Source: Candidatus Omnitrophota bacterium
Lineage (GTDB): Bacteria > Omnitrophota > Gorgyraeia > Gygaellales > JAQTUX01
Direction: 5' to 3'
NCBI GenBank assembly: GCA_028707125.1
Contig: JAQTUX010000001.1
Coordinates: 822,528 to 886,527, forward strand
Length of the DNA stretch: 64,000 bases
Shown here: piece after piece, positions 6,883 to 56,634 of the stretch
Position numbering within the stretch: position 1 is the stretch's first letter
Layout: every line of letters begins with the position of its first letter
The notes under the pieces: model-generated
What the model was told of the DNA's origin: nothing
The model's input: only the letters and a program-made list of their open reading frames with translations
Database searches by the model: none
Made by a program: the position numbers and the translations under genes

Positions 6883-8580
6883 ATGCATAAGAATTGGATC
6901 TTTAGAAAAGGCGACAGCCGTATTCAGGAACATCTGGTTAAAGAGTTAAAGATATCCGCGCTGCTCGCGCGGTTATTGGTTAACCGCGGCATAAAACAGC
7001 CGCGGGACGCGCTTAAGTTCCTCAAGCCCGGCATCTCGGATCTATTAGACCCTTTGGATCTGCCGGATATGGAGAAGGCGGTAAAGCGCGTAAGAAAAGC
7101 GCTGAAAGATAAACAGCCGATCCTCATCTGCGGGGATTACGATGTTGACGGCATAACCGGCTGCGTGCTGCTTCACAAAGTGCTTGGCCGTATGGGCGGC
7201 CTGGCAGATATACATCTGCCCCACAGGATCAAGGACGGCTACGGCATAAGCAGGGACGCCGTTAAAATAGCCGTGAAGAAGAAGGCGCTGGCAATAAGCG
7301 TTGATTGCGGCATATCTGATTTTGAGGAAGTGGATGAGTTAAGAAAGAGCGGCATAGATACGATAATAATAGACCATCATACGCCTCATAACGGCAGATT
7401 GCCCACGGCCTTTGCCATTATCAACCCGAAACTGGAAACCTCCTCATACGGGTTTAAGGACCTTGCCGGAGTAGGCGTTGTCTTGAAAGTCGCGCAGGCG
7501 CTTACCGCGGATACCCTTGAGGCGGACCTGGACATAGTGGCCCTGGGAACGGTCGCGGATGTCGTGCCGTTACTTGGCGAAAACAGGATCATAGTGAAAG
7601 AGGGCCTGGCCAGATTGAATGCCACGCGGCATAACGGGCTGAAGGCGCTTATAGATGTTTCAGGCATAAAAGGCAAGGAGATATCGGTCGGCTATATAAG
7701 TTACATATTGGGCCCGAGGATAAACGCGGGCGGCAGGATGGGCGATGCCGGCGCCCCCCTGAAACTCTTGTTGAGCGATGATTATGATGAGGCAAAGTTG
7801 TTGGCAAACAGCCTGAATACGCATAACAGGAACCGGCAGAATATTGAAGAAAAGATCATGAACGAGGCGGTCTCCCGCATTGAATCAGGCGAGATGGATT
7901 TTAAAAATCATTATGTGATCGTTCTCGGCGGCGATAGTTGGCACAGGGGGGTGCTGGGGATCATCGCTTCCAAGATCGCGGACAGGTATTACAGGCCCGT
8001 TATCATAATCTCTTTTGAAGACGGCGTGGGAAAGGGCTCCTGCCGTTCCATAAGAAGCTTCCACATACTTGAGGCGCTGAGCCGCTGCCGGAAGCATCTG
8101 CAGGATTTCGGCGGGCACAAGTGCGCCGCGGGTATCACGGTCTTAGAGAGAGATCTGGATAATTTCCGGGAGAGTGTCAATGCCGCTGCCAGGGATATGC
8201 TTAAGCCGAGCGACCTTATACCTTCTATAGAGATCGATGCCGAGGTCAGGCTCGCGGATCTAAACCATGGCCTGCTTGATAGTATAAATGAGCTTTCGCC
8301 TTTTGGCTGTGATAACCCTGAGCCGTTATTTTCAACCCGTAACCTGAGTTTAAAGGGTCTGCCTCAGGTGATGGGCAGGGGTACGCTCAAGATGTGGGTA
8401 ACCGACGGCAATACAACTTATCAGGCCGTGGGCTTCGCGATGGCGTCGCTTAAGGATTACATAAGTTCGCTTTCGTCATTTGACGCCGCGTTCAAGGTCT
8501 CGGCAGATACCTGGGAAGGGCGTAACGATTTACAGCTGGAAATAGAGGATATCAGGCCTTCTGAACCTTCTCTGCTTTAA
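6883..8580 (+). CDS. recJ: Single-stranded-DNA-specific exonuclease RecJ
   Basis: DHH motif (IIIDHHTPH), DHHA1 region, ~565 aa. Confidence 0.9.
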   Translation: MHKNWIFRKGDSRIQEHLVKELKISALLARLLVNRGIKQPRDALKFLKPGISDLLDPLDLPDMEKAVKRVRKALKDKQPILICGDYDVDGITGCVLLHKVLGRMGGLADIHLPHRIKDGYGISRDAVKIAVKKKALAISVDCGISDFEEVDELRKSGIDTIIIDHHTPHNGRLPTAFAIINPKLETSSYGFKDLAGVGVVLKVAQALTADTLEADLDIVALGTVADVVPLLGENRIIVKEGLARLNATRHNGLKALIDVSGIKGKEISVGYISYILGPRINAGGRMGDAGAPLKLLLSDDYDEAKLLANSLNTHNRNRQNIEEKIMNEAVSRIESGEMDFKNHYVIVLGGDSWHRGVLGIIASKIADRYYRPVIIISFEDGVGKGSCRSIRSFHILEALSRCRKHLQDFGGHKCAAGITVLERDLDNFRESVNAAARDMLKPSDLIPSIEIDAEVRLADLNHGLLDSINELSPFGCDNPEPLFSTRNLSLKGLPQVMGRGTLKMWVTDGNTTYQAVGFAMASLKDYISSLSSFDAAFKVSADTWEGRNDLQLEIEDIRPSEPSLL

Positions 8581-13367: not shown

Positions 13368-15455
13368 ATGTCTTTAGAAAGCATGAAAATTGAGTTCGGC
13401 GGCAAGGAATTGATCTTAGAAACAGGCCATTTGGCCAGGCAGGCAGGCGGTTCGGTGACTGTCAGGTGCGGCGGGACGGTTGTGCTGGTTACTGCCTGTA
13501 TGTCCAGGGAAATAAAGGAGGACCGGGACTTTTTTCCTCTTACCGTTGAATATCAGGAAAAGACATATGCCGCCGGCAGGATCCCCGGGGGTTTCTTCAA
13601 GCGTGAAGGCAGGCCGTCAGAGAGCGAGATACTTTGCGCGCGGCTGATCGACAGGCCAATACGCCCGCTTTTTCCCGACGGGATGCGTAATGAAGTGCAG
13701 ATAATGGCTATAGTGCTTTCCAGCGACGGCGAAAACGACCCTGATGTGCTGGCGGTAGTAGGCGCCTCCTGCGCCCTTATGATCTCCGATATACCTTTTC
13801 CGGGCCCGGTCGGCGCTTCGCGCGTTGCCAGAGTGAATGGAGAGTTGGTGATCAATCCCACGTACGCGCAGATAGAAAAGAGCGATTTCGAAATGGTAGT
13901 GGCCGGCACGAAAGACGGCGTGATCATGCTTGAGTGCCGCGCGAAGGAGATACCCGAAGAGGATATTATTCAGGCGATCGAATTCGGCTATAAAAATACG
14001 CAGGTTTTAATGAAGCTTCAGGAGGAATTCAGCAGGAAATACGGAAGCAAGAAGCAGGAAGTGGTGTTAAAGGCGATAGACGAATCACTCGTAGAGAAGG
14101 TCCGCGGGCTCGCTGTCAGACCGTTGGAAGATATATTTAAGATAAGCGATAAGGAGGGGCGGGAAGACGCGGTTTCCGCCTTATCTAAACAGATCGAAGA
14201 GCAGCTTTTAAGCGATGAGATCTCTGCCAAGGACATAAGAGAGGCGCTTACTCGCGTGGAAAAGGCCCAGGTAAGGGATGCCATACTGGTTAAGTCCGTT
14301 CGCGCGGATTCAAGAGGGCTTAAAGAAGTAAGGCCTATAGATTGTAAGGTAGGTCTGCTTCCGCGCACGCATGGCTCGGGGCTTTTTACAAGGGGGCAGA
14401 CCCAGAGCCTGTCTGTCACCACATTGGGGACAGGGGAAGACGAACAGCTGATAGAGGCGTTAGAGGGGGAGAGCTACAAGAGTTTTATGCTGCATTACAG
14501 TTTTCCGCCTTTCAGCGTAGGCGAGACAAAGCCGGTGCGCGGCCCGGGCAGGAGAGAGATAGGCCATGGCGCGCTGGCGGAAAAGGCCCTGTCGGTAATG
14601 ATGCCTTCAAAAGAGGCGTTTCCCTATACTGTGCGCGTGGTCTCTGAAATATTGGAATCAAACGGTTCATCCAGCATGGCCACGGTATGCGCGGCAACCC
14701 TGTCGCTTATGGACGCGGGGGTCCCTCTGAAGGACGCCGTTGCCGGAGTTGCCATGGGCCTTATCAAAGAAAAACAAAAGGCCATCATCCTGACCGATAT
14801 AACCGGGCTTGAAGATCATTTCGGCGATATGGATTTTAAGGTTGCCGGCACTACAAAGGGCGTCACCGCTTTGCAGCTTGACCTGAAGATCGAAGGCATA
14901 TCGTCGGATATTTTGAGGCAGGCGGTAGCTCAGGCGGAAGAGGCGCGTTTATTTATCCTGGAAAAGATGAAGCAGGCAATTGCCGCGCCAAGGCAGGAGC
15001 TTTCCGCGTACGCCCCGCGCATAACCATGCTTAAGGTAAATCCCGAGAAGATAGGGGAACTTATCGGCCCCGGCGGAAAGAACGTAAAGAAGATCATCAG
15101 CCAGACAGGCGTTACCATAGATATACAGGACGACGGCACTGTGATGGTGGGTTCCACGGACCCCAAGAGGTCACAGGAGGCCATTGATATAATAAACAGC
15201 ATCACCGAAGAAGCCAAGGTCGGCAAGATCTATAACGCCAAGGTCAAGCGCATAATGAATTTCGGCGCCTTCTGCGAGATCGCTCCCGGAAAAGAAGGCC
15301 TGGTCCATGTTTCCGAGCTGGCCGATACCTTCGTCAAGAATGTAGAGGACGTGGTAAAGGTGGGGGATGAGATAAAGGTCAAGGTTGTGAACATAGACGA
15401 ATTGGGCAGGATAAACCTGAGCAAGAAACAGGCCGACGCTGAAGCCAAGAAATAA
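13368..15455 (+). CDS. pnp: Polynucleotide phosphorylase
   Basis: Two RNase PH domains, KH and S1 domains, 695 aa; conserved rpsO-pnp synteny. Confidence 0.95.
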   Translation: MSLESMKIEFGGKELILETGHLARQAGGSVTVRCGGTVVLVTACMSREIKEDRDFFPLTVEYQEKTYAAGRIPGGFFKREGRPSESEILCARLIDRPIRPLFPDGMRNEVQIMAIVLSSDGENDPDVLAVVGASCALMISDIPFPGPVGASRVARVNGELVINPTYAQIEKSDFEMVVAGTKDGVIMLECRAKEIPEEDIIQAIEFGYKNTQVLMKLQEEFSRKYGSKKQEVVLKAIDESLVEKVRGLAVRPLEDIFKISDKEGREDAVSALSKQIEEQLLSDEISAKDIREALTRVEKAQVRDAILVKSVRADSRGLKEVRPIDCKVGLLPRTHGSGLFTRGQTQSLSVTTLGTGEDEQLIEALEGESYKSFMLHYSFPPFSVGETKPVRGPGRREIGHGALAEKALSVMMPSKEAFPYTVRVVSEILESNGSSSMATVCAATLSLMDAGVPLKDAVAGVAMGLIKEKQKAIILTDITGLEDHFGDMDFKVAGTTKGVTALQLDLKIEGISSDILRQAVAQAEEARLFILEKMKQAIAAPRQELSAYAPRITMLKVNPEKIGELIGPGGKNVKKIISQTGVTIDIQDDGTVMVGSTDPKRSQEAIDIINSITEEAKVGKIYNAKVKRIMNFGAFCEIAPGKEGLVHVSELADTFVKNVEDVVKVGDEIKVKVVNIDELGRINLSKKQADAEAKK

Positions 15456-18406: not shown

Positions 18407-18410
18407 TTTA

Positions 18411-18534
18411 TAATGACCAATGTCCAAGCTCCAATGACGAATGAAATCACAATGACCCAAATCCCAAATAGAAAATACAAATTGGGTATTGGGATTTGGA
18501 CATTCATTCGTCATTGGGATTTGGTAATTGTGAC
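18411..18534. repeat. Heptamer-periodic imperfect palindromic intergenic element A (CCCAAAT / ATTGGGA units plus CCAATGACGAATGAA inverted 15-mer)
   Basis: Long imperfect inverted repeat read directly; fills the whole rodZ-like/rimO spacer. Confidence 0.6.
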
Positions 18535-18538
18535 TTAA

Positions 18539-21899: not shown

Positions 21900-21907
21900 A
21901 AACTTGT

Positions 21908-22065
21908 CTTCGGGGTAGGGTGAGATTCCCGACTGGTGGTTGCGCAGAAAGCGCACACCGGCGCTTCCTTTAGCGCCGGGTGTTATAGCCCACGAGTTCG
22001 CTGATAGGCGAGCAGAACCGGTGAAATGCCGGTGCCAATGGTAAAGTCCAGATGGAAGAAGGCAG
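21908..22065 (+). promoter_or_regulatory. FMN riboswitch (RFN element) aptamer
   Basis: 5' CTTCGGGGTAGGGTGAGATTCCCGACTGGTGGT and 3' CCAATGGTAAAGTCCAGATGGAAGAAGG match conserved RFN segments; located upstream of ribBA. Confidence 0.75.
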
Positions 22066-22092
22066 GCGGCATCAGGTTTGATGTCGGGAAGC

Positions 22093-22133: not shown

Positions 22134-23336
22134 ATGAAATTCAATGAGATTCCGGAGATAATTGAAGAACTGAAATCAGGCAGAATGGTCATCGTTGTTG
22201 ATGATGAGGACAGGGAGAATGAAGGGGACCTTGTAATGGCCGCCTCATCTGTCAACGCCGAGGCGATAAATTTTATGGCCACGCACGGCAAAGGCCTGAT
22301 CTGCGTGCCTATGGAGGCGGGGCGGCTGAACGAATTGAATATCCACCCGATGTCTTCATACAACGACAGGTTCAGGACCGGCTGGATGGTCTCTGTGGAT
22401 GCCGCTTCAGGCATCACTACCGGAATATCCGCCGCGGACAGGGCAAGGACGGTACAGGTCTTGATCGGCCCCGGATCGCGGCCCGAAGACATAGTGCGCG
22501 GCGGGCATATCTTTCCGCTTAAGGCAAGCAACGGCGGCGTGCTTGTGCGCGCGGGCCATACAGAGGCATGCGTTGATCTGATGCGGCTGTCTTCTTTGTA
22601 TCCTGCAGGCGTGATCTGCGAGATCATGAACTCGGACGGCACAATGGCCCGGTTCAATGATTTGGCAGAGTTTTCCAGGAAGCACGGTTTAAAGATATGC
22701 AGCATAGCCGGTCTTATCCAGTACCGCCGCCGCTCTGAGAAGCTGGTTAAAAGGGCGGCGCGGGCCAAGCTCCCCACGGAATTCGGCGAGTTTGATCTGA
22801 TACTTTACAGCACCGAGATAGACAGTAGCTATCACACGGCTTTGGTAAGATCGCTTAAGGCCAACGATAGTGATCCGGTTTTAGTCAGGGTGCACTCGGA
22901 ATGTTTGACAGGCGACGTGTTCTCTTCTTTAAGATGCGACTGCGGCAGGCAGCTTAAGATCGCCATGGAGATGATAGGCAAGGCAGGCAGCGGCGTAATA
23001 TTGTATATGAACCAGGAGGGCAGGGGTATCGGACTTCTGGGTAAGATAAAGGCCTATGCCCTGCAGGACGGCGGTATGGATACGGTTGAAGCAAACCACG
23101 CATTGGGATTCGGCGCGGACCTGCGGGATTATGGTATAGGCGCGCAGATCCTGGTAGACCTGGGCATTAAGAATATACGGCTGATCACCAATAATCCAAA
23201 AAAAATTGTGGGGTTGGAGGGTTATGATTTGAAGGTGGTCGAAAGGGTGCCGCTTGAGATAAAGCCGAACCCCGCGAATTACAAGTATCTTAAGACAAAG
23301 AAAGAGAAATTGGGGCACGAACTGACATTGGAGTAA
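22134..23336 (+). CDS. ribBA: Bifunctional 3,4-dihydroxy-2-butanone-4-phosphate synthase / GTP cyclohydrolase II
   Basis: DHBP synthase N-half (RENEGDL) and GCHII C-half with CxCGxxxxC zinc motif. Confidence 0.95.
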
Positions 23337-26850: not shown

Positions 26851-26928
26851 CGGGGAGTAGCTCAGTTTGGCTAGAGCGTTTGGTTCGGGACCAAAAGGCC
26901 GTGGGTTCAAGTCCCACCTCCCCGACCA
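26851..26928 (+). tRNA. tRNA-Pro (anticodon CGG)
   Basis: Cloverleaf folded by hand: 7-bp acceptor CGGGGAG/CTCCCCG, U8A9, D-stem GCTC/GAGC, anticodon loop TTCGGGA, T-loop TTCAAGT, encoded CCA. Confidence 0.85.
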
Positions 26929-41748: not shown

Positions 41749-42834
41749 ATGTTTTACTACCTGGCGCATTCGCTTCGCGATCTATTCTTCGGATTTAACG
41801 TCTTCCGTTACATATCATTCCGTTCCATCGCCGCCGCGATATGCGCCTTCCTTGTATGCGTTATATTCGGGCCGGCCGTTATAAAGCGGCTGACTAAATT
41901 CAACTGCCTGGAAAACGTGGATAACGCCCATTGCCCTCAACTTAATGCCTTTCACGAAGGCAAGAAAAACACTCCCGGGATGGGCGGCATACTGATCGTG
42001 TCTTCAATACTGATAACCAATCTTTTATGGTCGGATATCTTTAACAAGTACATCATCCTTTGCCTGTTGAGCCTCGTGTATCTGGGTATTGTCGGTTTCA
42101 TTGACGATTATATAAAGATAATAAAAAGGGACAAGAACGGCCTTTCGGGCAGAGTCAAGCTGGCGTTCCAGATCGTTCTCGGGCTGGGTGTGGGCCTGGC
42201 GTTGTTCATTGAACCGGGAAGGACTGTCATGGATGTGCCGTTACTAAAAGGCCCCATATTGGACCTGGGGGTCTTTTATGTCCTGTTCGCTATATTGGTC
42301 ATAAGCGGCACTTCCAACGCAGTTAATATAGCCGACGGCCTGGACGGCCTGGCAGCCGGAAGTATGATCATGGTTGCCGCGGCATACGGCATACTGAGTT
42401 ATGTCACAGGCCACGCCAGGATCAGCGAATATCTGCTTATCCCTTTTGTGCCGGGAGCCGGTGAACTGACGGTGTTCTGCTCCAGCGTTTTCGGGGCTGT
42501 GCTGGGTTTTCTCTGGTTTAACTGTTATCCTGCGGCAGTATTTATGGGCGACGTGGGCTCGCTTTCCCTGGGCGGCGCGTTGGGCGTGGTGGCGCTGTCC
42601 ATAAAGAAGGAGCTGTTGCTTGTAATAGTGGGCGGGATATTCGTGGTAGAGATCGTCTCGGTTATTTTACAGGTGGCTTCTTTTAAACTGAGAGGCAAGC
42701 GGCTGTTTAAGGTAGCGCCGCTTCATCATCACTTGCAGATGATCGGCTGGAAGGAGCCGAAGATAATCACCAGGTTCTGGATAGTTTCCATTATGTTGGC
42801 CCTCCTTACGCTGCTGACGTTAAAATTAAGATGA
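41749..42834 (+). CDS. mraY: Phospho-N-acetylmuramoyl-pentapeptide transferase
   Basis: Polytopic membrane protein with NAxNxxDGxDGL motif. Confidence 0.95.
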   Translation: MFYYLAHSLRDLFFGFNVFRYISFRSIAAAICAFLVCVIFGPAVIKRLTKFNCLENVDNAHCPQLNAFHEGKKNTPGMGGILIVSSILITNLLWSDIFNKYIILCLLSLVYLGIVGFIDDYIKIIKRDKNGLSGRVKLAFQIVLGLGVGLALFIEPGRTVMDVPLLKGPILDLGVFYVLFAILVISGTSNAVNIADGLDGLAAGSMIMVAAAYGILSYVTGHARISEYLLIPFVPGAGELTVFCSSVFGAVLGFLWFNCYPAAVFMGDVGSLSLGGALGVVALSIKKELLLVIVGGIFVVEIVSVILQVASFKLRGKRLFKVAPLHHHLQMIGWKEPKIITRFWIVSIMLALLTLLTLKLR

Positions 42835-44099
42835 AAGAATTCAAGGGTAAAAAGGCGGCTGTCCTGGGGGCGGGCCGTTCCGGGCTCGCGGCCGCGGCCC
42901 TGCTTAAAGACGCGGGGGCGGACGTGTTTGTCTCCGACCTGAGCGATTCCAGCAAGATCCTGGAGAGCGAGAGATTCCTTGCCGCCCGGGACATAGAATT
43001 TGAATTTGGAAAGCACTCCAAAGACAGGATAAAACAGAGCGGCCTTATTGTCATAAGCCCGGGCATAAGCGGGAACTCCGACATAGTGAAGTGGGCGGAT
43101 GGCCTGAAAATACCCATCATAAGCGAGATCGAACTGGGTTATCTTTTTTGCAAGGGCAGGATCGTGGCGGTCACCGGCACCAACGGGAAGACCACGGTAA
43201 CCACCCTCATCGGGAAGGTGATCTCGGCTGCCGGCTATAAGTGTTTTACCTGCGGCAACATCGGCAGGCCGTTTTGCGCGGACGCGGGGCAGGCGAGAGA
43301 GGGGGATTTTATCTCTTTGGAGGTAAGCTCTTTTCAGCTTGAAAGGACCCAAAGTTTTAAGCCGCGTGTGGCGGTAATGCTCAACATCAGCCCCGACCAT
43401 ATGGACAGATACCGCGATATTGATGAGTATTTTTCCGCGAAAAAGAAGATATACGCCAATCAGGGCAGCGACGATTTTCTTATACTCAATTACGATGACC
43501 CGCTTTTGGCCGGCCTGGCAGGCGAGGCGCCTTCCAGGGCGATGTTTTTCAGAGACAAGTTGGAAGATTCCAAACACGGCGTAAAATTGAATCCCAATCA
43601 CTTCGCGGTTATGGCCGCGGCCGAGGCGCTGGGCATACCTGAGAAGACCTGTATGGCGGTATTCAGGGAATTCAAAGGCGTGGAGCATCGCCTTGAAGCA
43701 GTGCGCACGATCAGAGATATATTATTCATCAACGACTCAAAGGCGACCAACGTGGATTCCGCGATCTGGGCATTGAAAAATTTGAGCCGGCCGGCGGTGA
43801 TCATTGCCGGCGGCAGGGATAAAAATTGCCCGCTGGACCCGGTCTTGCCGCTGGTAAGGCAAAAGGTAAAGCATATGGTGCTGATCGGCGAGGCCACGGA
43901 TAAGTTCTATGATTTTTTTAAAGATACCGTCAGTATTGATAAAGCCGGCGATCTGGAAGGCGCGGTAAGGGCCGCCTATAAGAGGGCAGCGCCCGGCGAC
44001 TGCGTCATCCTCAGCCCCATGTGCGCGAGTTTCGATATGTTTGATAACTATGAACATAGAGGGAGAGTATTTAAAGAGATAGTTAATAAATTGACATAG
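42831..44099 (+). CDS. murD: UDP-N-acetylmuramoylalanine--D-glutamate ligase
   Basis: GTNGKTT P-loop, MurD domain organisation. Confidence 0.9.
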   Translation: MKEFKGKKAAVLGAGRSGLAAAALLKDAGADVFVSDLSDSSKILESERFLAARDIEFEFGKHSKDRIKQSGLIVISPGISGNSDIVKWADGLKIPIISEIELGYLFCKGRIVAVTGTNGKTTVTTLIGKVISAAGYKCFTCGNIGRPFCADAGQAREGDFISLEVSSFQLERTQSFKPRVAVMLNISPDHMDRYRDIDEYFSAKKKIYANQGSDDFLILNYDDPLLAGLAGEAPSRAMFFRDKLEDSKHGVKLNPNHFAVMAAAEALGIPEKTCMAVFREFKGVEHRLEAVRTIRDILFINDSKATNVDSAIWALKNLSRPAVIIAGGRDKNCPLDPVLPLVRQKVKHMVLIGEATDKFYDFFKDTVSIDKAGDLEGAVRAAYKRAAPGDCVILSPMCASFDMFDNYEHRGRVFKEIVNKLT

Positions 44100-44104
44100 G
44101 GAAA

Positions 44105-44249
44105 TAAAACCCTAAACCCGAAACCCTAAACTCTAAATAAACCCAAATGTTAAAACCACAAACCCAAAACTTGATTATGGTTGCTGTTTGTAGTTTTGTG
44201 TTTTGAGTTTGTAGTTTGTTTAGTGTTTAGAGTTTAGTGTTTAGAGTTT
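44105..44249. repeat. Heptamer-periodic imperfect palindromic intergenic element B (CCCTAAA-like array facing TTTAGDG-like array)
   Basis: Left arm AAACCCT AAACCCG AAACCCT AAACTCT; right arm GTGTTTA GAGTTTA GTGTTTA GAGTTTA; occupies the whole murD-ftsW spacer. Confidence 0.6.
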
Positions 44250-44255
44250 AAGAAT

Positions 44256-45344
44256 ATGAGGCGGACAAGGATAACATTATTCTGCGTGACGGTGGCCCTG
44301 ATATGCCTGGGCCTGGTGATGATCTACAGCGCCAGTTCGATCTACGCCTGGGAAAACTACAAGGACAGCGCCTTTTTCCTGAAGAGGCAGCTGCTTTACG
44401 TCATCTTGGGGGCGATAGGCGGTTTTTTCACGCTTTCCTTTGATTACGCCCTCCTGCGCAAGGCGGCCAAGCCGCTGATGGTATTCTCAGTATTTCTGCT
44501 TTTACTTCTGCTCCTGCCGGGTATTTCCAGGGAGGTCTCAGGGGCAAGGCGCTGGTTCAGGTTAGGATTGATCGGTTTCCAGCCGTCGGAGCTGGCCATA
44601 TTGACAATGATCATCTATGTTTCGGATTTCATCTCCCGCAAAAAGGGCATCGTCAGGGATTTCTATTCCGGGTTCCTTCCGCCGGTGATGGTTTTAGGTT
44701 TTGTCACGCTGCTTATATTCCTTCAGCCGGACTTCGGCACCGCGGTAGGGATGGGCACGGTCACGCTGATAATCATTTTCCTGGGCGGCGCGCGGCTGGC
44801 CCATCTCGGTTCAATACTCCTGGCGGCTTTCCCTTTCTTATACGTTCTGGTCTTCAGCGTTCCCTATCGCAGGGCGAGGATAATGTCGTTCCTTAATCCC
44901 TGGCTTGACCCCAAGGGCAGCGGTTTCCAGATCATTCAATCGCAGATAGCGCTTGGTTCGGGCGGGCTTTTCGGAGTGGGGCTGGGCGAAGGCAAGCAGA
45001 AGCTGTTTTACCTGCCTGCCGCGCATACCGATTTTATATTCTCCATAATCGGAGAAGAACTGGGTTTTCTCGGCACAATGGCCGTGGTCATACTTTTTGT
45101 CACGTTGATATGGCAGGGCGTAAATATTGCCAGGAACTCTCCGGATCTATTCGGATGTTTATTGAGCGTGGGAGTGACATCAATGCTCGCCTTTAAGGCA
45201 TTCATAAACATAGGCGTGTCTTGCGGTATCCTGCCTACCAAAGGGCTCCCCTTGCCGTTTATAAGTTACGGGGGCTCTTCCTTATTGTTTGATATGATAG
45301 GCGTGGCTATTTTGCTTAATGTGGCAAAACACGCTGAGATATGA
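44256..45344 (+). CDS. ftsW: SEDS-family peptidoglycan glycosyltransferase FtsW
   Basis: 10-TM SEDS topology, conserved FtsW/RodA motifs. Confidence 0.9.
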   Translation: MRRTRITLFCVTVALICLGLVMIYSASSIYAWENYKDSAFFLKRQLLYVILGAIGGFFTLSFDYALLRKAAKPLMVFSVFLLLLLLLPGISREVSGARRWFRLGLIGFQPSELAILTMIIYVSDFISRKKGIVRDFYSGFLPPVMVLGFVTLLIFLQPDFGTAVGMGTVTLIIIFLGGARLAHLGSILLAAFPFLYVLVFSVPYRRARIMSFLNPWLDPKGSGFQIIQSQIALGSGGLFGVGLGEGKQKLFYLPAAHTDFIFSIIGEELGFLGTMAVVILFVTLIWQGVNIARNSPDLFGCLLSVGVTSMLAFKAFINIGVSCGILPTKGLPLPFISYGGSSLLFDMIGVAILLNVAKHAEI

Positions 45345-46429
45345 AAATACTGATCGCCTGCGGCGCCAGCGGCGGCCACATATTTCCGGCGATAAGTTTC
45401 GCGGAGCGCCTGAAGGCAGAGAGGCCTCAAGCGCGGATATTGTTCGTTGTCTCAAAGACGGCGTTCGGCAGCGCGATCCCGGGCGGCTATGATACCAGGG
45501 TCATTTCTGTTCTGCCGCCGGCGAGGTTCTTTTCCGCGCGTTTTTTCTGTTTTCTATTCTCGCTGGCCAGGGCATTCTTTGAAAGTATCTCCATCATCCG
45601 TAAATTTGATCCCGTCTTAGTAGTGGGATTCGGCTGTTATTCCTGCGTCCCCGCGGTATTGGCGGCGGTTATTTTAAGGAAGAAGACATTGCTGCACGAA
45701 CAGAACGTTATTCCGGGAAGGGCGCTGCGCCTTCTGGCGCCGTTCGTGAACAAAATAGCGATAAGCTTTCAGGAGACGCGCGATAGATTCGGTTTCTTAT
45801 ATAGGAAAAAGATCGTATTGACCGGCAATCCTTTACGCGGGGAGCTGTTTGGGAAGAGCCGGGATGACGCCTTGAGTTTTTTCGGTTTTGATCCGGGGAA
45901 GAAGACGATCCTGGTAATGGGCGGCAGCCAGGGAAGCCGGAAGATCAACAAGGCCTTTATCAGCGCGGCGGCGCCGCTCAAGGATCATCTGTCCATGCAG
46001 GTCATACATATTTGCGGCAGGGACGACAGGGAATATCTGGCGGGCGAGTACAAAAGATTAGGCGTAGATGCCCGCGTGTTTGATTTCCTGAAAGATATGG
46101 GATACGCCTATTCTCTGGCAGACGCGGTGGTATCGCGCGCCGGGGCTATGGCGGTATCTGAGATCATCGGGCTGGGAAAACCATCCGTGCTTATACCTTA
46201 TCCGTTTGCCAGGGCCCATCAATCGGCGAATGCCGAGGTGCTTTCTTCGGCGGGCGCCGCCATTGTGATAAAAGATGTCGAGCTGAGCGCGGAATACCTG
46301 CGCGGCAGATTATTGCTTTTATTGCGCGAACAGGAAGAAATTGATAGAATAAAGCGGGGGTTATCGGGGTTGGCAGTGCTGGAGGCGGATAAATTGCTGG
46401 TTAACAGCGCGTTGGAGCTATCGCATTGA
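45341..46429 (+). CDS. murG: UDP-N-acetylglucosamine--N-acetylmuramyl-(pentapeptide) pyrophosphoryl-undecaprenol N-acetylglucosamine transferase
   Basis: GT28 fold, GGSGGHIFP motif. Confidence 0.9.
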   Translation: MKILIACGASGGHIFPAISFAERLKAERPQARILFVVSKTAFGSAIPGGYDTRVISVLPPARFFSARFFCFLFSLARAFFESISIIRKFDPVLVVGFGCYSCVPAVLAAVILRKKTLLHEQNVIPGRALRLLAPFVNKIAISFQETRDRFGFLYRKKIVLTGNPLRGELFGKSRDDALSFFGFDPGKKTILVMGGSQGSRKINKAFISAAAPLKDHLSMQVIHICGRDDREYLAGEYKRLGVDARVFDFLKDMGYAYSLADAVVSRAGAMAVSEIIGLGKPSVLIPYPFARAHQSANAEVLSSAGAAIVIKDVELSAEYLRGRLLLLLREQEEIDRIKRGLSGLAVLEADKLLVNSALELSH

Positions 46430-47238
46430 TGGGCCTTATCAAGAGATGTTTGCTGCCGCTGGCAGTAATGATGTTTTGTGTTTTATCCTGCCGTGCTGAA
46501 TCCGTAGCGGGAAAAGAATGGAAAGAGAAAAGGAGCGAGCATTTCATTGTCTATTATGATGAGTTCAACAGGGATTTCCTGGATAAGCTGATAAGGCAGG
46601 CAGAGCGCCTGTATACGAAGATCACCGATAATCTGGGATATATGCGTTATGATTACTGGACCTGGGACAACAGGGCGAAGTTTTATATTTATAATGATAA
46701 AGACGGCTACGTGTCAGGCACGGGGCAGCCGCGCTGGTCTGAGGGCGCGGCAGATACCTACAACAAGATAATCACGACCTATTACGGCGCTTCAGACATT
46801 TTTTTTAACAGCATCCTGCCTCATGAGTTGGGGCATCTTATGTTCAGGGAATTCGTCGGTTTCAAGGCCTCGGTCCCGCTCTGGTTTGAAGAGGGCGTGG
46901 CTGTGATGCAGGAGGTATTGATGGATGAGGTGAGGCGGCATTCGGCAAGAAGCAGGGTAAAGAACGCCTGGCGCAACAAGACGTTCATACCCCTGACTAT
47001 CCTTTCATCCATGTCCGTGAGGGATGAGGATGATGAGTCAAGGGTAGGTTTATTTTATGACGAAGCGCTGATGGCCGTGTATTTCCTGATGGATGAGTTC
47101 GGCAGGGAAAGGTTTGTGAGGTTGTGCAGGCGCATAAGGGACGGCGACGGCTTTGCCGAGGCGCTGGTCTCCGTGTATCGCATTAATTCACTTGAAGAGT
47201 TGAATGAACGATTTGTTGAATATATAAGCAATGAATAG
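46426..47238 (+). CDS. Secreted putative gluzincin metallopeptidase (peptidase MA-like, HExxH + downstream Glu)
   Basis: Signal peptide; HELGH motif followed ~20 aa later by EEG; inserted between murG and murC. Confidence 0.55.
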   Translation: MMGLIKRCLLPLAVMMFCVLSCRAESVAGKEWKEKRSEHFIVYYDEFNRDFLDKLIRQAERLYTKITDNLGYMRYDYWTWDNRAKFYIYNDKDGYVSGTGQPRWSEGAADTYNKIITTYYGASDIFFNSILPHELGHLMFREFVGFKASVPLWFEEGVAVMQEVLMDEVRRHSARSRVKNAWRNKTFIPLTILSSMSVRDEDDESRVGLFYDEALMAVYFLMDEFGRERFVRLCRRIRDGDGFAEALVSVYRINSLEELNERFVEYISNE

Positions 47239-52347: not shown

Positions 52348-52367
52348 CTACACACTTACGTGTGTAG
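52348..52367. repeat. REP-type hairpin (CTACACAC-TTAC-GTGTGTAG) overlapping tnpA stop codon
   Basis: Perfect 8-bp stem; the TAA stop of tnpA lies in the loop. Confidence 0.6.
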
Positions 52368-53042: not shown

Positions 53043-53177
53043 ATGCTCGCTCGTAGGAATATCAAAAATAACTAAGCAATCAGAACTTATTACGGTATAA
53101 TAGATAGCAGCAAGGAGAACCGTCCCCGATCCAATATTTATATTACAAGAAAGCATAATGTCGACTAATTATTTTCT

Positions 53178-53205
53178 TGACATATAATATTAAATGTGTT
53201 AATCT
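53178..53205 (+). promoter_or_regulatory. Sigma70-like promoter of island operon (TTGACA-16-TAATCT) with AAAGGAGG RBS downstream
   Basis: Read directly in AT-rich spacer upstream of 53232. Confidence 0.45.
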
Positions 53206-53231
53206 GTTAACATCTATGAAAGGAGGCAAGC

Positions 53232-53432
53232 ATGCAAAAACAAAAAAATGACACTGAAAGAGATATGGTAAAACATCTGAAGAAATTAGTTATGCTTAGC
53301 GAAAATTCCTTGATTATAAGTCTATCTCAACAAGATGTCCCTCATCAGACGATACGAAAAGTTGCCGGAGTTGATATGTCTCGTGTCACCTCGTTGCTTC
53401 GCGGGGTAAAGTCTGCAAAAAAGACTGATTAG
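53232..53432 (+). CDS. Small putative HTH protein, paralog 1 of 4 (66 aa)
   Basis: Hydrophobic helix then helix-turn-helix-like HQTIRKVAGVDMSRVTSLLRG; aligns with the other three small ORFs. Confidence 0.5.
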   Translation: MQKQKNDTERDMVKHLKKLVMLSENSLIISLSQQDVPHQTIRKVAGVDMSRVTSLLRGVKSAKKTD

Positions 53433-53448
53433 CGAAAGGAGTACTACT

Positions 53449-53613
53449 ATGCAAAACACTGACAAAATCATTGAGGAATTAGTGGCTATAAAGAAGCTGC
53501 TTATGCTTCAATTAATGCGCGATGACGTGGACGCCTCCGTAATTGGGAAGGTACTAGAACTAACCCCTACGCGAATACGACAAATAATACCAGTAAAAGA
53601 CGTACGCAAATAA
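53449..53613 (+). CDS. Small putative HTH protein, paralog 2 of 4 (54 aa; below ORF-track cutoff)
   Basis: MQNTDKIIEELVAIKKLLMLQLMRDDVDASVIGKVLELTPTRIRQIIPVKDVRK; AGGAG RBS 8 nt upstream; same architecture as neighbours. Confidence 0.5.
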   Translation: MQNTDKIIEELVAIKKLLMLQLMRDDVDASVIGKVLELTPTRIRQIIPVKDVRK

Positions 53614-53628
53614 TAAGGAGCCTTCATA

Positions 53629-53856
53629 ATGAAACGAACTAGGAAAATTGGCGCAGAAGACGAAGTTTCAGTAAAATTGGGCATCTTAATCCGGTTGTTT
53701 ATTGAATTTCTGATAACATCGGAAAATAAGAACTTTAATACTGGCAACGTTGCAAGAATCTTAAAATCACTCGATATTACACCAACCGAAATTGCAAGAA
53801 TGTTAGGTAAGAAATCTGTAACTGATGTTGCACCATTTCTTTATCGTAAGAAGTAA
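53629..53856 (+). CDS. Small putative HTH protein, paralog 3 of 4 (75 aa)
   Basis: LGILIRLFIEFLI helix then NVARILKSLDITPTEIARMLG HTH-like segment. Confidence 0.5.
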   Translation: MKRTRKIGAEDEVSVKLGILIRLFIEFLITSENKNFNTGNVARILKSLDITPTEIARMLGKKSVTDVAPFLYRKK

Positions 53857-53869
53857 GGGGTAGATACCA

Positions 53870-54769: not shown

Positions 54770-54780
54770 GAGGCGACATA

Positions 54781-54990
54781 ATGAAGAAAAAGCGCAGTAT
54801 AACTAAAAAAAGTCTGTCTGATTCCGATCGTTTAGATATAATCATATCTTTACTAAGTCACTTACTAACTGTTCAGTTATATAAATCAGGCGCGACAATG
54901 GATGATATATGTAGGCATTTACATATTGCAAAAACATCCGTGGTCGATATGTTAAAAGGTTTCAAGCGAAAGCTCGGTAATAATTCGTAA
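54781..54990 (+). CDS. Small putative HTH protein, paralog 4 of 4 (69 aa)
   Basis: IIISLLSHLLTVQL helix then TMDDICRHLHIAKTSVVDMLKGF. Confidence 0.5.
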   Translation: MKKKRSITKKSLSDSDRLDIIISLLSHLLTVQLYKSGATMDDICRHLHIAKTSVVDMLKGFKRKLGNNS

Positions 54991-55080
54991 ACAAGACGGT
55001 TACAATTAATCTTGGACCAATAACATAATGGGGACGGTTCTCATTAGTTTTAGTTGCTGAATCATAACAGACCTAGTAGC

Positions 55081-55180
55081 CGCTTTTCGTAATTAGCTAA
55101 TTTCCCGTAACTTACAGAACAAATATTTACCCCACACTTACGTGTGGGGAATGGCAATCCCTGATTGTCTCAGCGGGTGG
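55081..55180 (+). repeat. Repeat unit U1: CGCTTTTCGTAATTAGCTAATT head (12-bp perfect palindrome AATTAGCTAATT) + REP hairpin (55130-55149) + CTGATTGTCTCAGCGGGTG tail
   Basis: Read directly; second copy U2 ~175 bp downstream. Confidence 0.55.
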
Positions 55181-55255
55181 CTTTGGACGGGGCGCCCCGC
55201 CCCGCGCGGAGTTCTCCCGTCCGTTATGGTAATGAATTCTATGAAGAATGGCAGA

Positions 55256-55400
55256 CGCTTTTCGTAATTAGCTAATTCCCCCATAACTCTATATAAGGAT
55301 ATCACAAGATGTGATATCCTTTATTGTTTCTAATGCTATTGGAGGGTACCCCACACTTACGTGTGGGGAATGACAATTCTGCACTGATTGTCTCAGCGGG
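55256..55400 (+). repeat. Repeat unit U2: same head, extra perfect hairpin AAGGATATCAC-AAGAT-GTGATATCCTT (55295-55321), REP hairpin (55349-55368), tail merging into 230-bp repeat copy 1
   Basis: Read directly. Confidence 0.55.
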
Positions 55401-55613
55401 TGACTGCCGAGCGGGCACAGAATTTCGGGAGGGGTGACGTCGTTTTGAGGGCTCCCGCCGCGCGGACCCGCCAAGACATCTGGCGGGGAGCACGGCGGGA
55501 AACAAAACGACGGCAGGACCCCTCCCTCAGAGTTACAATCTAGATACTTCGGCGGTGATTTATTGACAAGGCCGCCTCAGTATCAACACCAGGACGCATA
55601 CGAAGGTGTTGAC
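55384..55613 (+). repeat. ~230-bp GC-rich structured direct repeat, copy 1 (upstream of MNT/HEPN pair)
   Basis: Near-identical to 56405-56634; nested inverted repeats GGGAGGGGTGACGTCGTTTTG / CAAAACGACGGCAGGACCCCTCCC and inner CCCGCCA-AGACATC-TGGCGGG. Confidence 0.7.
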
Positions 55614-55638
55614 ATTTATATAAGTTATATTGTATAAT
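55609..55638 (+). promoter_or_regulatory. Consensus sigma70-like promoter (TTGACA-18-TATAAT) for MNT/HEPN operon
   Basis: Perfect hexamers read directly at the end of repeat copy 1. Confidence 0.55.
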
Positions 55639-55679
55639 TAAGTTGCGAATACTTAGCGGGATAAAAAAATTAGGCAAAT

Positions 55680-56404: not shown

Positions 56405-56634
56405 CTGATTGTCTCAGCGGGTGACGCCGAGCGGGCACAGAATTTCGGGAGGGGTGACGTCGTTTTGAGGGCTCCCGCCGCGCGGACCCGCCAAGACATC
56501 TGGCGGGGAGCACGGCGGGAAACAAAACGACGGCAGGACCCCTCCCCTCAGAGTTACAATCTAGATACTTCGGCGGTGATTTATTGACAAGGCCGCCTCA
56601 GTATCAACACCGAGCAGCATACGAAGGTGTTGAC
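56405..56634 (+). repeat. ~230-bp GC-rich structured direct repeat, copy 2 (upstream of yggS)
   Basis: Near-identical to 55384-55613 (few substitutions/indels). Confidence 0.7.

Follow-up and report, generated by a model that had tools for sequence, protein, structure and literature searches.

Why should a long palindrome stand between murD and ftsW, in a gene cluster whose other genes overlap or nearly touch? The question is raised by a stretch of 64,000 nucleotides from a Candidatus Omnitrophota metagenome-assembled genome (MAG), hereafter called the window. In its division and cell wall (dcw) cluster, the murD-ftsW spacer measures 156 nt, whereas the neighbouring dcw junctions range from -31 to +7 nt. 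The whole spacer is occupied by an imperfect palindrome whose units are AAACNCN and NGNGTTT heptamers, which we call element B. Our analysis suggests that B probably belongs to a dispersed family of intergenic repeats, each copy being an imperfect palindrome with phased AAAC-NNN heptamer arms. In kind, this family recalls the doublets of repetitive extragenic palindromic (REP) sequences known as REPINs, the enterobacterial repetitive intergenic consensus (ERIC) and the miniature inverted-repeat transposable elements (MITEs), and in architecture the short tandemly repeated repetitive (STRR) sequences. B would then probably be passive on the dcw mRNA, and not a dedicated regulator of the dcw genes.

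The palindrome between murD and ftsW

An inverted-repeat search delimited two arms of 64 nt (44107-44170 and 44186-44249) that are 72% complementary and separated by a loop of 15 nt; complementarity rises to 88% in the outer part (44113-44137 and 44226-44250). The stem starts 7 nt past the murD stop codon and ends 6 nt ahead of the ftsW ATG, in a spacer with a GC content of 0.31. Tandem Repeats Finder (TRF) detected 4.4 copies of AAACCCT with a period of 7 in the left arm (44107-44137), and both 4.9 copies of TGTTTAG (44217-44250) and 4.7 copies of a 14-mer (44187-44250) in the right arm. The 13-mer AAACCCTAAACCC, searched with up to 2 mismatches, gave 9 matches where 1.8 were expected, seven of them inside element B. 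Besides murD and ftsW (Table 1), mraY and murG of the dcw cluster were recognised by Pfam. The FtsW and MurD proteins of the window are identical to NCBI entries encoded on a contig of 1.26 Mb (MurD: MDD4909889.1). The sequence, its inverted-repeat arms and the junction lengths all agree with the preliminary description of this locus, which had reported a heptamer palindrome interrupting a tightly packed dcw cluster.

That description had also proposed that the palindrome is an insertion, and comparison of the junction in relatives points the same way. In the closest relative available (L002, FtsW 73% identical), the end of murD and the start of ftsW share 4 nt (ATGA), in L003 the two genes abut, and most of the 65 murD-ftsW junctions measured are at most 17 nt long. 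A chimeric query joining the MurD C-terminus to the FtsW N-terminus retrieved no relative between 73% and 100% identity. Since the relatives examined in detail overlap or abut, B appears to be a lineage-specific insertion into the murD/ftsW stop-start overlap. The insert would have split the ancestral ATGA, creating a new murD stop two codons into the insert and retaining the ftsW ATG, which would explain why murD ends in ..N K L T stop in the window and in ..N R L stop in L002. L002 does possess a heptamer hairpin of another kind at the next junction, between ftsW and murG. In another organism, a single predicted protein of 408 aa (P0242, from a Joint Genome Institute contig) spans the MurD C-terminus and the FtsW N-terminus, with 53% identity over the whole chimeric query; it corresponds either to a gene fusion or to a frameshift at the junction.

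The window contains a second element of the same architecture and of a different family, element A, located between a rodZ-like gene and rimO (RNA fold of -46.9 / -45.9 kcal/mol). Element A is missing in the relative L084 (reads SRR33086907), whose RimO is 96% identical and in which the rodZ-like gene and rimO overlap by 4 nt, indicating that elements of this design are gained or lost between close strains. The two genomes also differ in the N-terminus of RimO. Neither ftsW, which follows B, nor rimO, which follows A, has an upstream Shine-Dalgarno-like motif, whereas such a motif precedes the genes that follow true gaps elsewhere in the window.

Several other identities were considered for B. 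An assembly artefact is excluded by an independent Logan assembly of the same sample, in which a contig starts within the right arm of B with 36 identical bases, and by about 40 homologues in other assemblies; the short-read contigs of the source sample break within both A and B. The internal position and the absence of spacers rule out a CRISPR array or a true telomere. Integron attC sites possess an R'/R'' core GTTRRRY and have gene cassettes as neighbours; the arms of B do not fit this core (GTTTAGA has a T at position 4) and its neighbours are essential genes. As judged by inspection of the alignment only, a G-quadruplex or i-motif is not a property of the family: B contains several CCC/GGG tracts and the family consensus arm only one. 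Scans revealed nothing resembling a terminator between 43700 and 44600, nor a promoter-like site on either strand, and the stem of B, long and A/U-rich, is not the short G+C-rich stem followed by a U tract that characterises an intrinsic terminator or attenuator. Rfam 15 yielded no family at gathering threshold over the whole window, and an E-value scan of B returned only sub-threshold hairpins of plant microRNA precursors (e.g. 36 bits vs 90 needed).

A dispersed family of intergenic palindromes

Metagenome contigs were scanned with a pattern derived from B (AAACYCNAAACYC, a gap of 70-100 nt, then GDGTTTAGDGTTT). The pattern matched more than 120 contigs and yielded approximately 44 true homologues. 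About half of the matches (within L086-L205, e.g. L087, L093, L095, L112, L127 and L142) were discarded as fold-backs of the eukaryote-type repeats (AAACCCT)n/(AGGGTTT)n. They are of the plant or algal telomere type, have no relation to the bacterial family and probably stem either from subtelomeres of eukaryotes or from fold-backs created by assembly.

Members of the family are imperfect palindromes of 115-160 nt with outer arms of about 37 nt. In our alignment of 39 members (A5), the 5' arm has the consensus TAAACCC TAAACTC GAAACCC TAAACTC TAAACAAAC and is followed by a variable apex; the 3' arm consensus is aTTTGTTTAGGATTTAGAGTTTAGTGTTTAGAGTTTA, i.e. GTTTGTTTA GGATTTA GAGTTTA GTGTTTA GAGTTTA, the first base being G in B and in most of its close members. 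Column identity amounts to 0.87 in the left arm and 0.90 in the right arm, mean pairwise identity to 82%, and B is 92% identical to L098; apparent conservation is somewhat inflated by the search pattern, which fixes 21 plain bases, and this weighs against our interpretation. Beyond the pattern, members have in common TAAACAAAC / GTTTGTTTA, GGATTTAG, the TAAAC-AAAC junction and the succession of unit variants. The family hidden Markov model matches B from 44103 to 44250 with 111 bits on the plus strand vs 76 bits on the minus strand. An orientation can thus be defined for the element, the lead of the best strand being 20-60 bits in the members with the highest scores, and smaller or almost nil in several others.

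The arms are conserved as sequences and do not covary. Mismatches between the two arms recur at the same positions in most copies, all five covariation measures are equal to or below those of shuffled alignments (score of 0.094 vs a shuffled mean of 0.104), and only 15 alignment cells are changed on both sides of the helix vs 26.9 after shuffling. RNAalifold detected no consensus structure in the 39-member alignment. The apex varies in length and sequence, each copy being still self-complementary, and some copies have acquired extra G+C-rich mini-hairpins.

All copies are intergenic: 17 lie between genes co-oriented with the element, 11 between genes of opposite orientation, and the remainder in mixed contexts or at contig ends. 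Among 20 downstream genes examined, 19 belong to different Pfam families (HslV, ETF, ArgJ, L1, HPF, TIM, LeuRS and others) and one has no Pfam hit; this diversity of housekeeping neighbours argues against a gene-specific cis-regulator. Judging from the cluster names of flanking proteins, the hosts include Candidatus Omnitrophota (L139, L153) and Thermodesulfobacteriota/'Deltaproteobacteria' (L103, L146). L124 and L184 each carry two copies on one contig. Arms that are conserved but do not covary, an interior that varies, copies in either orientation beside unrelated genes, strain-to-strain differences and presence in more than one phylum together point to a dispersed repeat that is copied at the DNA level and read through the sequences of its arms, and not to a structured RNA. 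The B family therefore behaves as a discrete repeat family rather than as a microsatellite. That B might be a passenger repeat had been suggested initially as a fallback, and its membership in a family dispersed over unrelated loci in two phyla makes this the best-supported reading.

A trans-acting protein would read the arm sequences and make the copies at the DNA level. Considering that no consistent target-site duplication was seen and that one strand folds better than the other, a hairpin or single-strand route (as in the case of RAYT, the REP-associated tyrosine transposases, or of elements like IS200/605) seems a better candidate than classical DDE cut-and-paste. Afterwards, slippage may cause the heptamer apex to drift. 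At the murD-ftsW junction, B is almost certainly co-transcribed within the dcw mRNA and would fold on itself, keeping the murD stop codon beside the ftsW start codon, so that ftsW, devoid of a Shine-Dalgarno motif, is probably still translated by termination-reinitiation. Such self-folding may explain how insertions are tolerated at overlapping junctions, B being in that case tolerable rather than regulatory. If so, the interruption of the dcw cluster is an ordinary and probably benign event, the repeat having landed in the only type of site that a 95%-coding genome tolerates.

Several known repeat systems resemble the B family in part. ERIC sequences, also called intergenic repeat units (IRU), are enterobacterial imperfect palindromes of about 127 bp, located in transcribed intergenic regions in either orientation, present or absent between related genomes and known from more than one lineage. 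The B family is similar in size, in being an imperfect palindrome, in its intergenic location within or between operons, in its occurrence in either orientation, in its presence/absence pattern and in its distribution over more than one lineage. However, the sequences are unrelated, ERIC has no heptamer phasing, and its hosts are Enterobacteriaceae and Vibrio, not Omnitrophota and Thermodesulfobacteriota; moreover, ERIC insertions are reported at TA sites, whereas no consistent duplication was seen in the B family. MITEs of bacteria (e.g. Correia/NEMIS and Nezha) are likewise short, non-coding and multicopy, with conserved terminal inverted repeats and a more variable interior. Terminal inverted repeats and many copies (about 40) at unrelated loci are indeed found in the B family; a target-site duplication is not. 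Its terminal repeats are tandem heptamers, its interior is itself palindromic and very variable in length, and no parent insertion sequence was found by a scan whose pattern spanned 70-100 nt between the arms only.

REPINs are inverted REP doublets mobilised by RAYT proteins (PMC3116915). Like them, members of the B family are dispersed intergenic repeats of about 100 nt that form hairpins, show no consistent target-site duplications, persist for long and are conserved in sequence without perfect pairing. In contrast to REPINs, the arms of the B family are not themselves short REP palindromes and have no GTAG or CGTC tag (PMC3733652): where a REP would show a palindrome of 20-40 nt with such a tag, B shows A/C-rich heptamer arms without internal palindrome. 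The heptamer lattice is not a REP feature either, and no RAYT gene was identified in the 64 kb read of the contig of about 1.26 Mb.

The heptamer phasing brings the B family close to another group of repeats. Many of the features that we found in B, namely tandem 7-nt intergenic units (period 7, with 4.4 and 4.9 copies according to TRF), often beside start codons, are also those of STRR-like repeats. The canonical STRR units of heterocystous cyanobacteria are CCCCA[A/G]T, TT[G/T]GTCA and CAACAGT; B differs in its units (AAACCCT, AAACTCT, AAACACT) and in its host (Omnitrophota), and element A alone, with AATGACC, matches the permuted complement of the STRR unit TTGGTCA. Heptamers are over-represented in bacterial intergenic DNA, a documented and unexplained fact, the reported repeats including cyanobacterial STRR, GACCAAT and TTTTGAA near start codons in Nostoc, GGGAATC in Xanthomonas (with occasional inverted pairs) and TAACTGA in Beggiatoaceae (PMC4692102, PMC4679880, bioRxiv 10.1101/2022.06.06.494920). 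The likeness to Nostoc extends to element A, whose unit AATGACC is a permutation of GACCAAT, and to L061, which carries TTTTGAA arrays. STRR-like repeats differ from the B family in that they are mostly plain direct arrays of a single unit, whereas in the latter the unit variants follow each other in a fixed order, within a palindrome that has an orientation and is conserved across phyla. A full-text literature search with the element's own sequence retrieved bisulfite primers only, and a search on Omnitrophota repeats retrieved nothing relevant; the B family, as well as the class behind it, is apparently undescribed so far. Its 7-nt phasing would tie a palindromic repeat to the heptanucleotide repeats (STRR and others), for which neither origin nor function has become clear since 1990.

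Some additional features were observed in family members. An open reading frame (ORF) of 20-51 codons (…LNPK[L/S]ETLNSKQTQ…) runs through the 5' arm in 18 of the 39 aligned members in the plus orientation (e.g. L089:3895-4044, L107:6352-6500 and L115:1852-2000) and in three of the 39 in the other; it is absent from B. These ORFs arise because the third heptamer begins with G or A, not T, in 27 of the 39 copies, which removes an in-frame TAA. Small G+C-rich hairpins are nested in the A/T-rich palindromes, in the outer arms of L107 and L163 and in the apexes of L113, L153, L190 and L200; one of them, GGGCGAAGCRTCCGYCTCGGACC, occupies the same relative position in L107 and L163. They recall the 'small dispersed repeats' that reportedly occur within cyanobacterial heptamer arrays. 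In copies of the Thermodesulfobacteriota type (L089, L103, L107, L174, L091 and L163), the B-type core lies inside a further outer palindrome of CGAAAT(C/T) heptamers. The same type of unit forms an Omnitrophota element, L046:18730-18873, suggesting that heptamer palindromes of different unit types nest or fuse.

Table 1. Coordinates in the window of elements A and B, of the parts of B and of the genes that flank it.
Feature	Position	Strand	Evidence
Element A, units AATGACC / AAATCCC, between rodZ-like and rimO	18407..18538	+	same architecture as B, different family
murD	42831..44099	+	Pfam Mur_ligase_M/C, MurD-like_N
Element B, entire murD-ftsW spacer	44100..44255	+	inverted repeat, tandem repeat, family hidden Markov model
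Conserved 5' outer arm of B, AAAACCC TAAACCC GAAACCC TAAACTC TAAATAAAC, five phased units	44106..44142	+	alignment A5 columns 12-48; TRF
Variable apical region of B, inner stem of CAAAAC-type units, loop ~44171-44185	44143..44213	+	
Conserved 3' outer arm of B, GTTTGTTTAGTGTTTAGAGTTTAGTGTTTAGAGTTTA	44214..44250	+	alignment A5 columns 175-211; TRF
ftsW	44256..45344	+	Pfam FTSW_RODA_SPOVE

Alternative explanations: host function, antisense transcription or local origin

A number of observations weigh against the interpretation of B as a copy of a dispersed repeat. The 64-kb window contains a single B-type copy, and no copies were detected in viral and plasmid collections by an exact 29-mer search and blastn, at the sensitivity used. 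Visual inspection of the sequences flanking the 39 copies revealed no consistent target-site duplication, although the fuzzy boundaries of the copies leave room for one of 2 nt. The apparent ATG...CAT ends of the copies are inverted, not direct, and the 7-nt GATATCG repeat at L119, a candidate duplication, belongs to an outer palindrome of CGAAAT units. Neither a transposase nor any other partner protein came to light, no transposase search having been made across the collections. Finally, the element is conserved between L091 and L163, which are orthologous filled sites, and heptamer elements inside dcw clusters are somewhat concentrated at the murD-ftsW junction.

The last two observations also speak for a host-selected cis-acting mRNA element. 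B would then be a processing site for RNase III/E, a barrier to 3'-exonucleases stabilising the upstream mur segment, or a tuner of translational coupling into ftsW, and the family would be a reusable module of 'operon punctuation'. In L091 and L163, the element is 85.5% identical, apex included, vs 47% for the third codon positions of the adjacent gene, which, in this single pair, points to constraint on the primary sequence or gene conversion and is not expected of a decaying passenger. Heptamer hairpins or arrays occur at murD-ftsW in several independent lineages (the window, L034, L049 and L078, with solitary arrays in L050, L054 and L082). Four of the 10 heptamer elements found in dcw clusters lie at this junction, which accounts for 9% of all 718 junctions measured (P=0.009; P=0.04 if the window is left out); the test is post hoc, concerns 10 elements only and uses loci all centred on ftsW. 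The way in which the elements fill the spacer, with the stop and start codons near the base of the stem, and the lack of Shine-Dalgarno motifs in the downstream genes would fit a role in coupling as well.

Nevertheless, we consider such a selected role unlikely. The closest relatives have no element at murD-ftsW, the sister element A is missing from a strain with 96% identity, and members of the family occur in both orientations relative to transcription, next to unrelated genes and, in the case of B, without any terminator-like feature. The absence of covariation and the conservation of mismatches indicate that the constraint bears on the sequence and not on pairing, and the few changes between the L091 and L163 elements are not compensatory. 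The conservation of this pair and the weak murD-ftsW excess nonetheless make a host function possible for B, even as a member of a dispersed repeat family.

The first reading of this locus had hinted that the hairpin is kept as RNA on the minus strand, which would mean an antisense transcript or a small RNA gene spanning the junction. The minus strand does fold better than the plus strand, both as RNA (-48.3 kcal/mol, z -8.7 relative to shuffles, vs -41.1 kcal/mol, z -4.5) and as DNA (-27.1, z -7.2, vs -21.7, z -4.6), and the same orientation gives the better fold in 30 of 43 family members. It had also been noticed that several arm mismatches become wobble pairs on the minus strand only. An ungapped alignment of the arms, with 46 Watson-Crick pairs and 18 mismatches, confirms this for four C·A mismatches, which turn into G·U on the minus strand; the claim does not extend to the other 14, two of which are G·T mismatches that favour the plus strand by wobble pairing and 12 of which pair on neither strand.

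At the level of the family, both strands are nearly equivalent. With the outer helix imposed by hand on the 39-member alignment, the share of paired cells is 82.5% for one strand and 84.1% for the other, and wobble cells of this helix are 108 on the plus strand only and 130 on the minus strand only. Folding both strands and counting the wobbles, as the preliminary description had recommended, thus leads to a mismatch pattern explained about equally well by either strand. In 20 hairpins of the same class from related genomes, arm mismatches comprise 44 sense wobbles, 37 antisense wobbles and 119 transversions, a ratio of transitions to transversions of about 1:2, as expected without selection for pairing. 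The strand asymmetry does not depend on the orientation of the host genes either: the 'minus' orientation folds better in 14 of the 17 members whose host genes are co-oriented and in 8 of the 11 whose genes are opposed, and is therefore a trait of the family consensus. The better minus-strand fold of B is inherited from this consensus and carries no information on antisense transcription at murD-ftsW. Together with the covariation scores, which do not exceed those of shuffled alignments, and with the lack of a promoter-like site on either strand, these results go against the idea that the fold is kept as an antisense RNA, which we now regard as very unlikely.

A purely local origin, in which a heptamer microsatellite of the spacer grows by polymerase slippage and is then turned into a palindrome by inverted duplication, with neither mobility nor family, would agree with the over-representation of heptamer simple-sequence repeats in bacterial intergenic DNA, for which slippage has been proposed (PMC4692102, PMC4679880), with the locally expanded 14-mer of the right arm and with the varying length of the apex among family members, yet it is extremely improbable and appears already contradicted by the family alignment, in which unrelated loci from different phyla agree both in how the unit variants are ordered and in the irregular TAAAC-AAAC junction, the more so as an ancestral junction with a 4-nt overlap would offer no spacer to expand in.

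Heptamer hairpins in related loci and other features of the window

We also surveyed 1.24 Mb of related loci from 80 species representatives, mostly Omnitrophota. Tandem arrays of period 7 are clearly dominant (21, vs at most two for any other period from 4 to 16), and a period of 7 fits best in 21 of 46 long inverted repeats. Our catalogue comprises about 20 unambiguous heptamer-array hairpins that differ from one another in their unit; without exception they lie between co-directional genes, and they usually fill the spacer. The A-rich arm is 5' on the sense strand in 17 of the first 20 hairpins, whereas the B family exhibits no such bias, with 17 copies oriented with the flanking genes and 11 against them. 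Two pairs of related hairpin copies are present at different loci of one genome, L061. This locus, from a groundwater MAG labelled Chlamydiae bacterium, contains five heptamer hairpins in 21 kb (430-506, 1444-1546, 2007-2126, 8174-8290 and 14538-14649), and its arrays include TTTTGAA and ATGACCA, two units also reported from the upstream regions of Nostoc PCC 7120 genes.

In a broader interpretation, palindromes with a heptamer lattice would form a distinct class across phyla, uniting the B type, the A type, other Omnitrophota unit types and perhaps the cyanobacterial STRR arrays that share GACCAAT and TTTTGAA. Such a class would be written or maintained by a factor reading one preferred single strand of nucleic acid in steps of 7 nt, and would be kept by selection at the sequence level, its members being neither ordinary MITEs nor products of slippage. 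We regard this proposal as doubtful. If B is indeed a copy of a dispersed repeat, the alignment and search model could be used to look for partner proteins by co-occurrence, to test whether long hairpins within operons preserve the coupling of translation, and to flag contig breaks in short-read assemblies of candidate phyla; the family and its class could then open the old question of heptamer repeats to experiment.

Other features were observed in the window. Within the dcw cluster, a gene encoding a Peptidase_MA_2 domain (46426-47238) is located between murG and murC and is conserved in the related Omnitrophota loci L001, L002 and L003. Further downstream, two segments have no ORF of at least 70 aa in a genome that is otherwise about 95% coding, 53057-53869 (813 nt) and 54770-55669 (900 nt); the latter folds strongly (-0.34 kcal/mol per nt), and neither has a match in Rfam at E<=0.1. 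The palindromic motif CCCCACAC(T/G)TA(C/A)GTGTGGGG occurs four times around a gene-poor stretch, at 52351 (degenerate), 52468, 55128 and 55347. A direct repeat of about 230 nt (55384-55613 and 56405-56634, 94-100% identical and 1021 nt apart) brackets a short segment. Finally, the window encodes a flavin mononucleotide (FMN) riboswitch (98 bits, 21902-22067), upstream of an ORF starting at 22134, and a tRNA gene (69 bits, 26851-26925).

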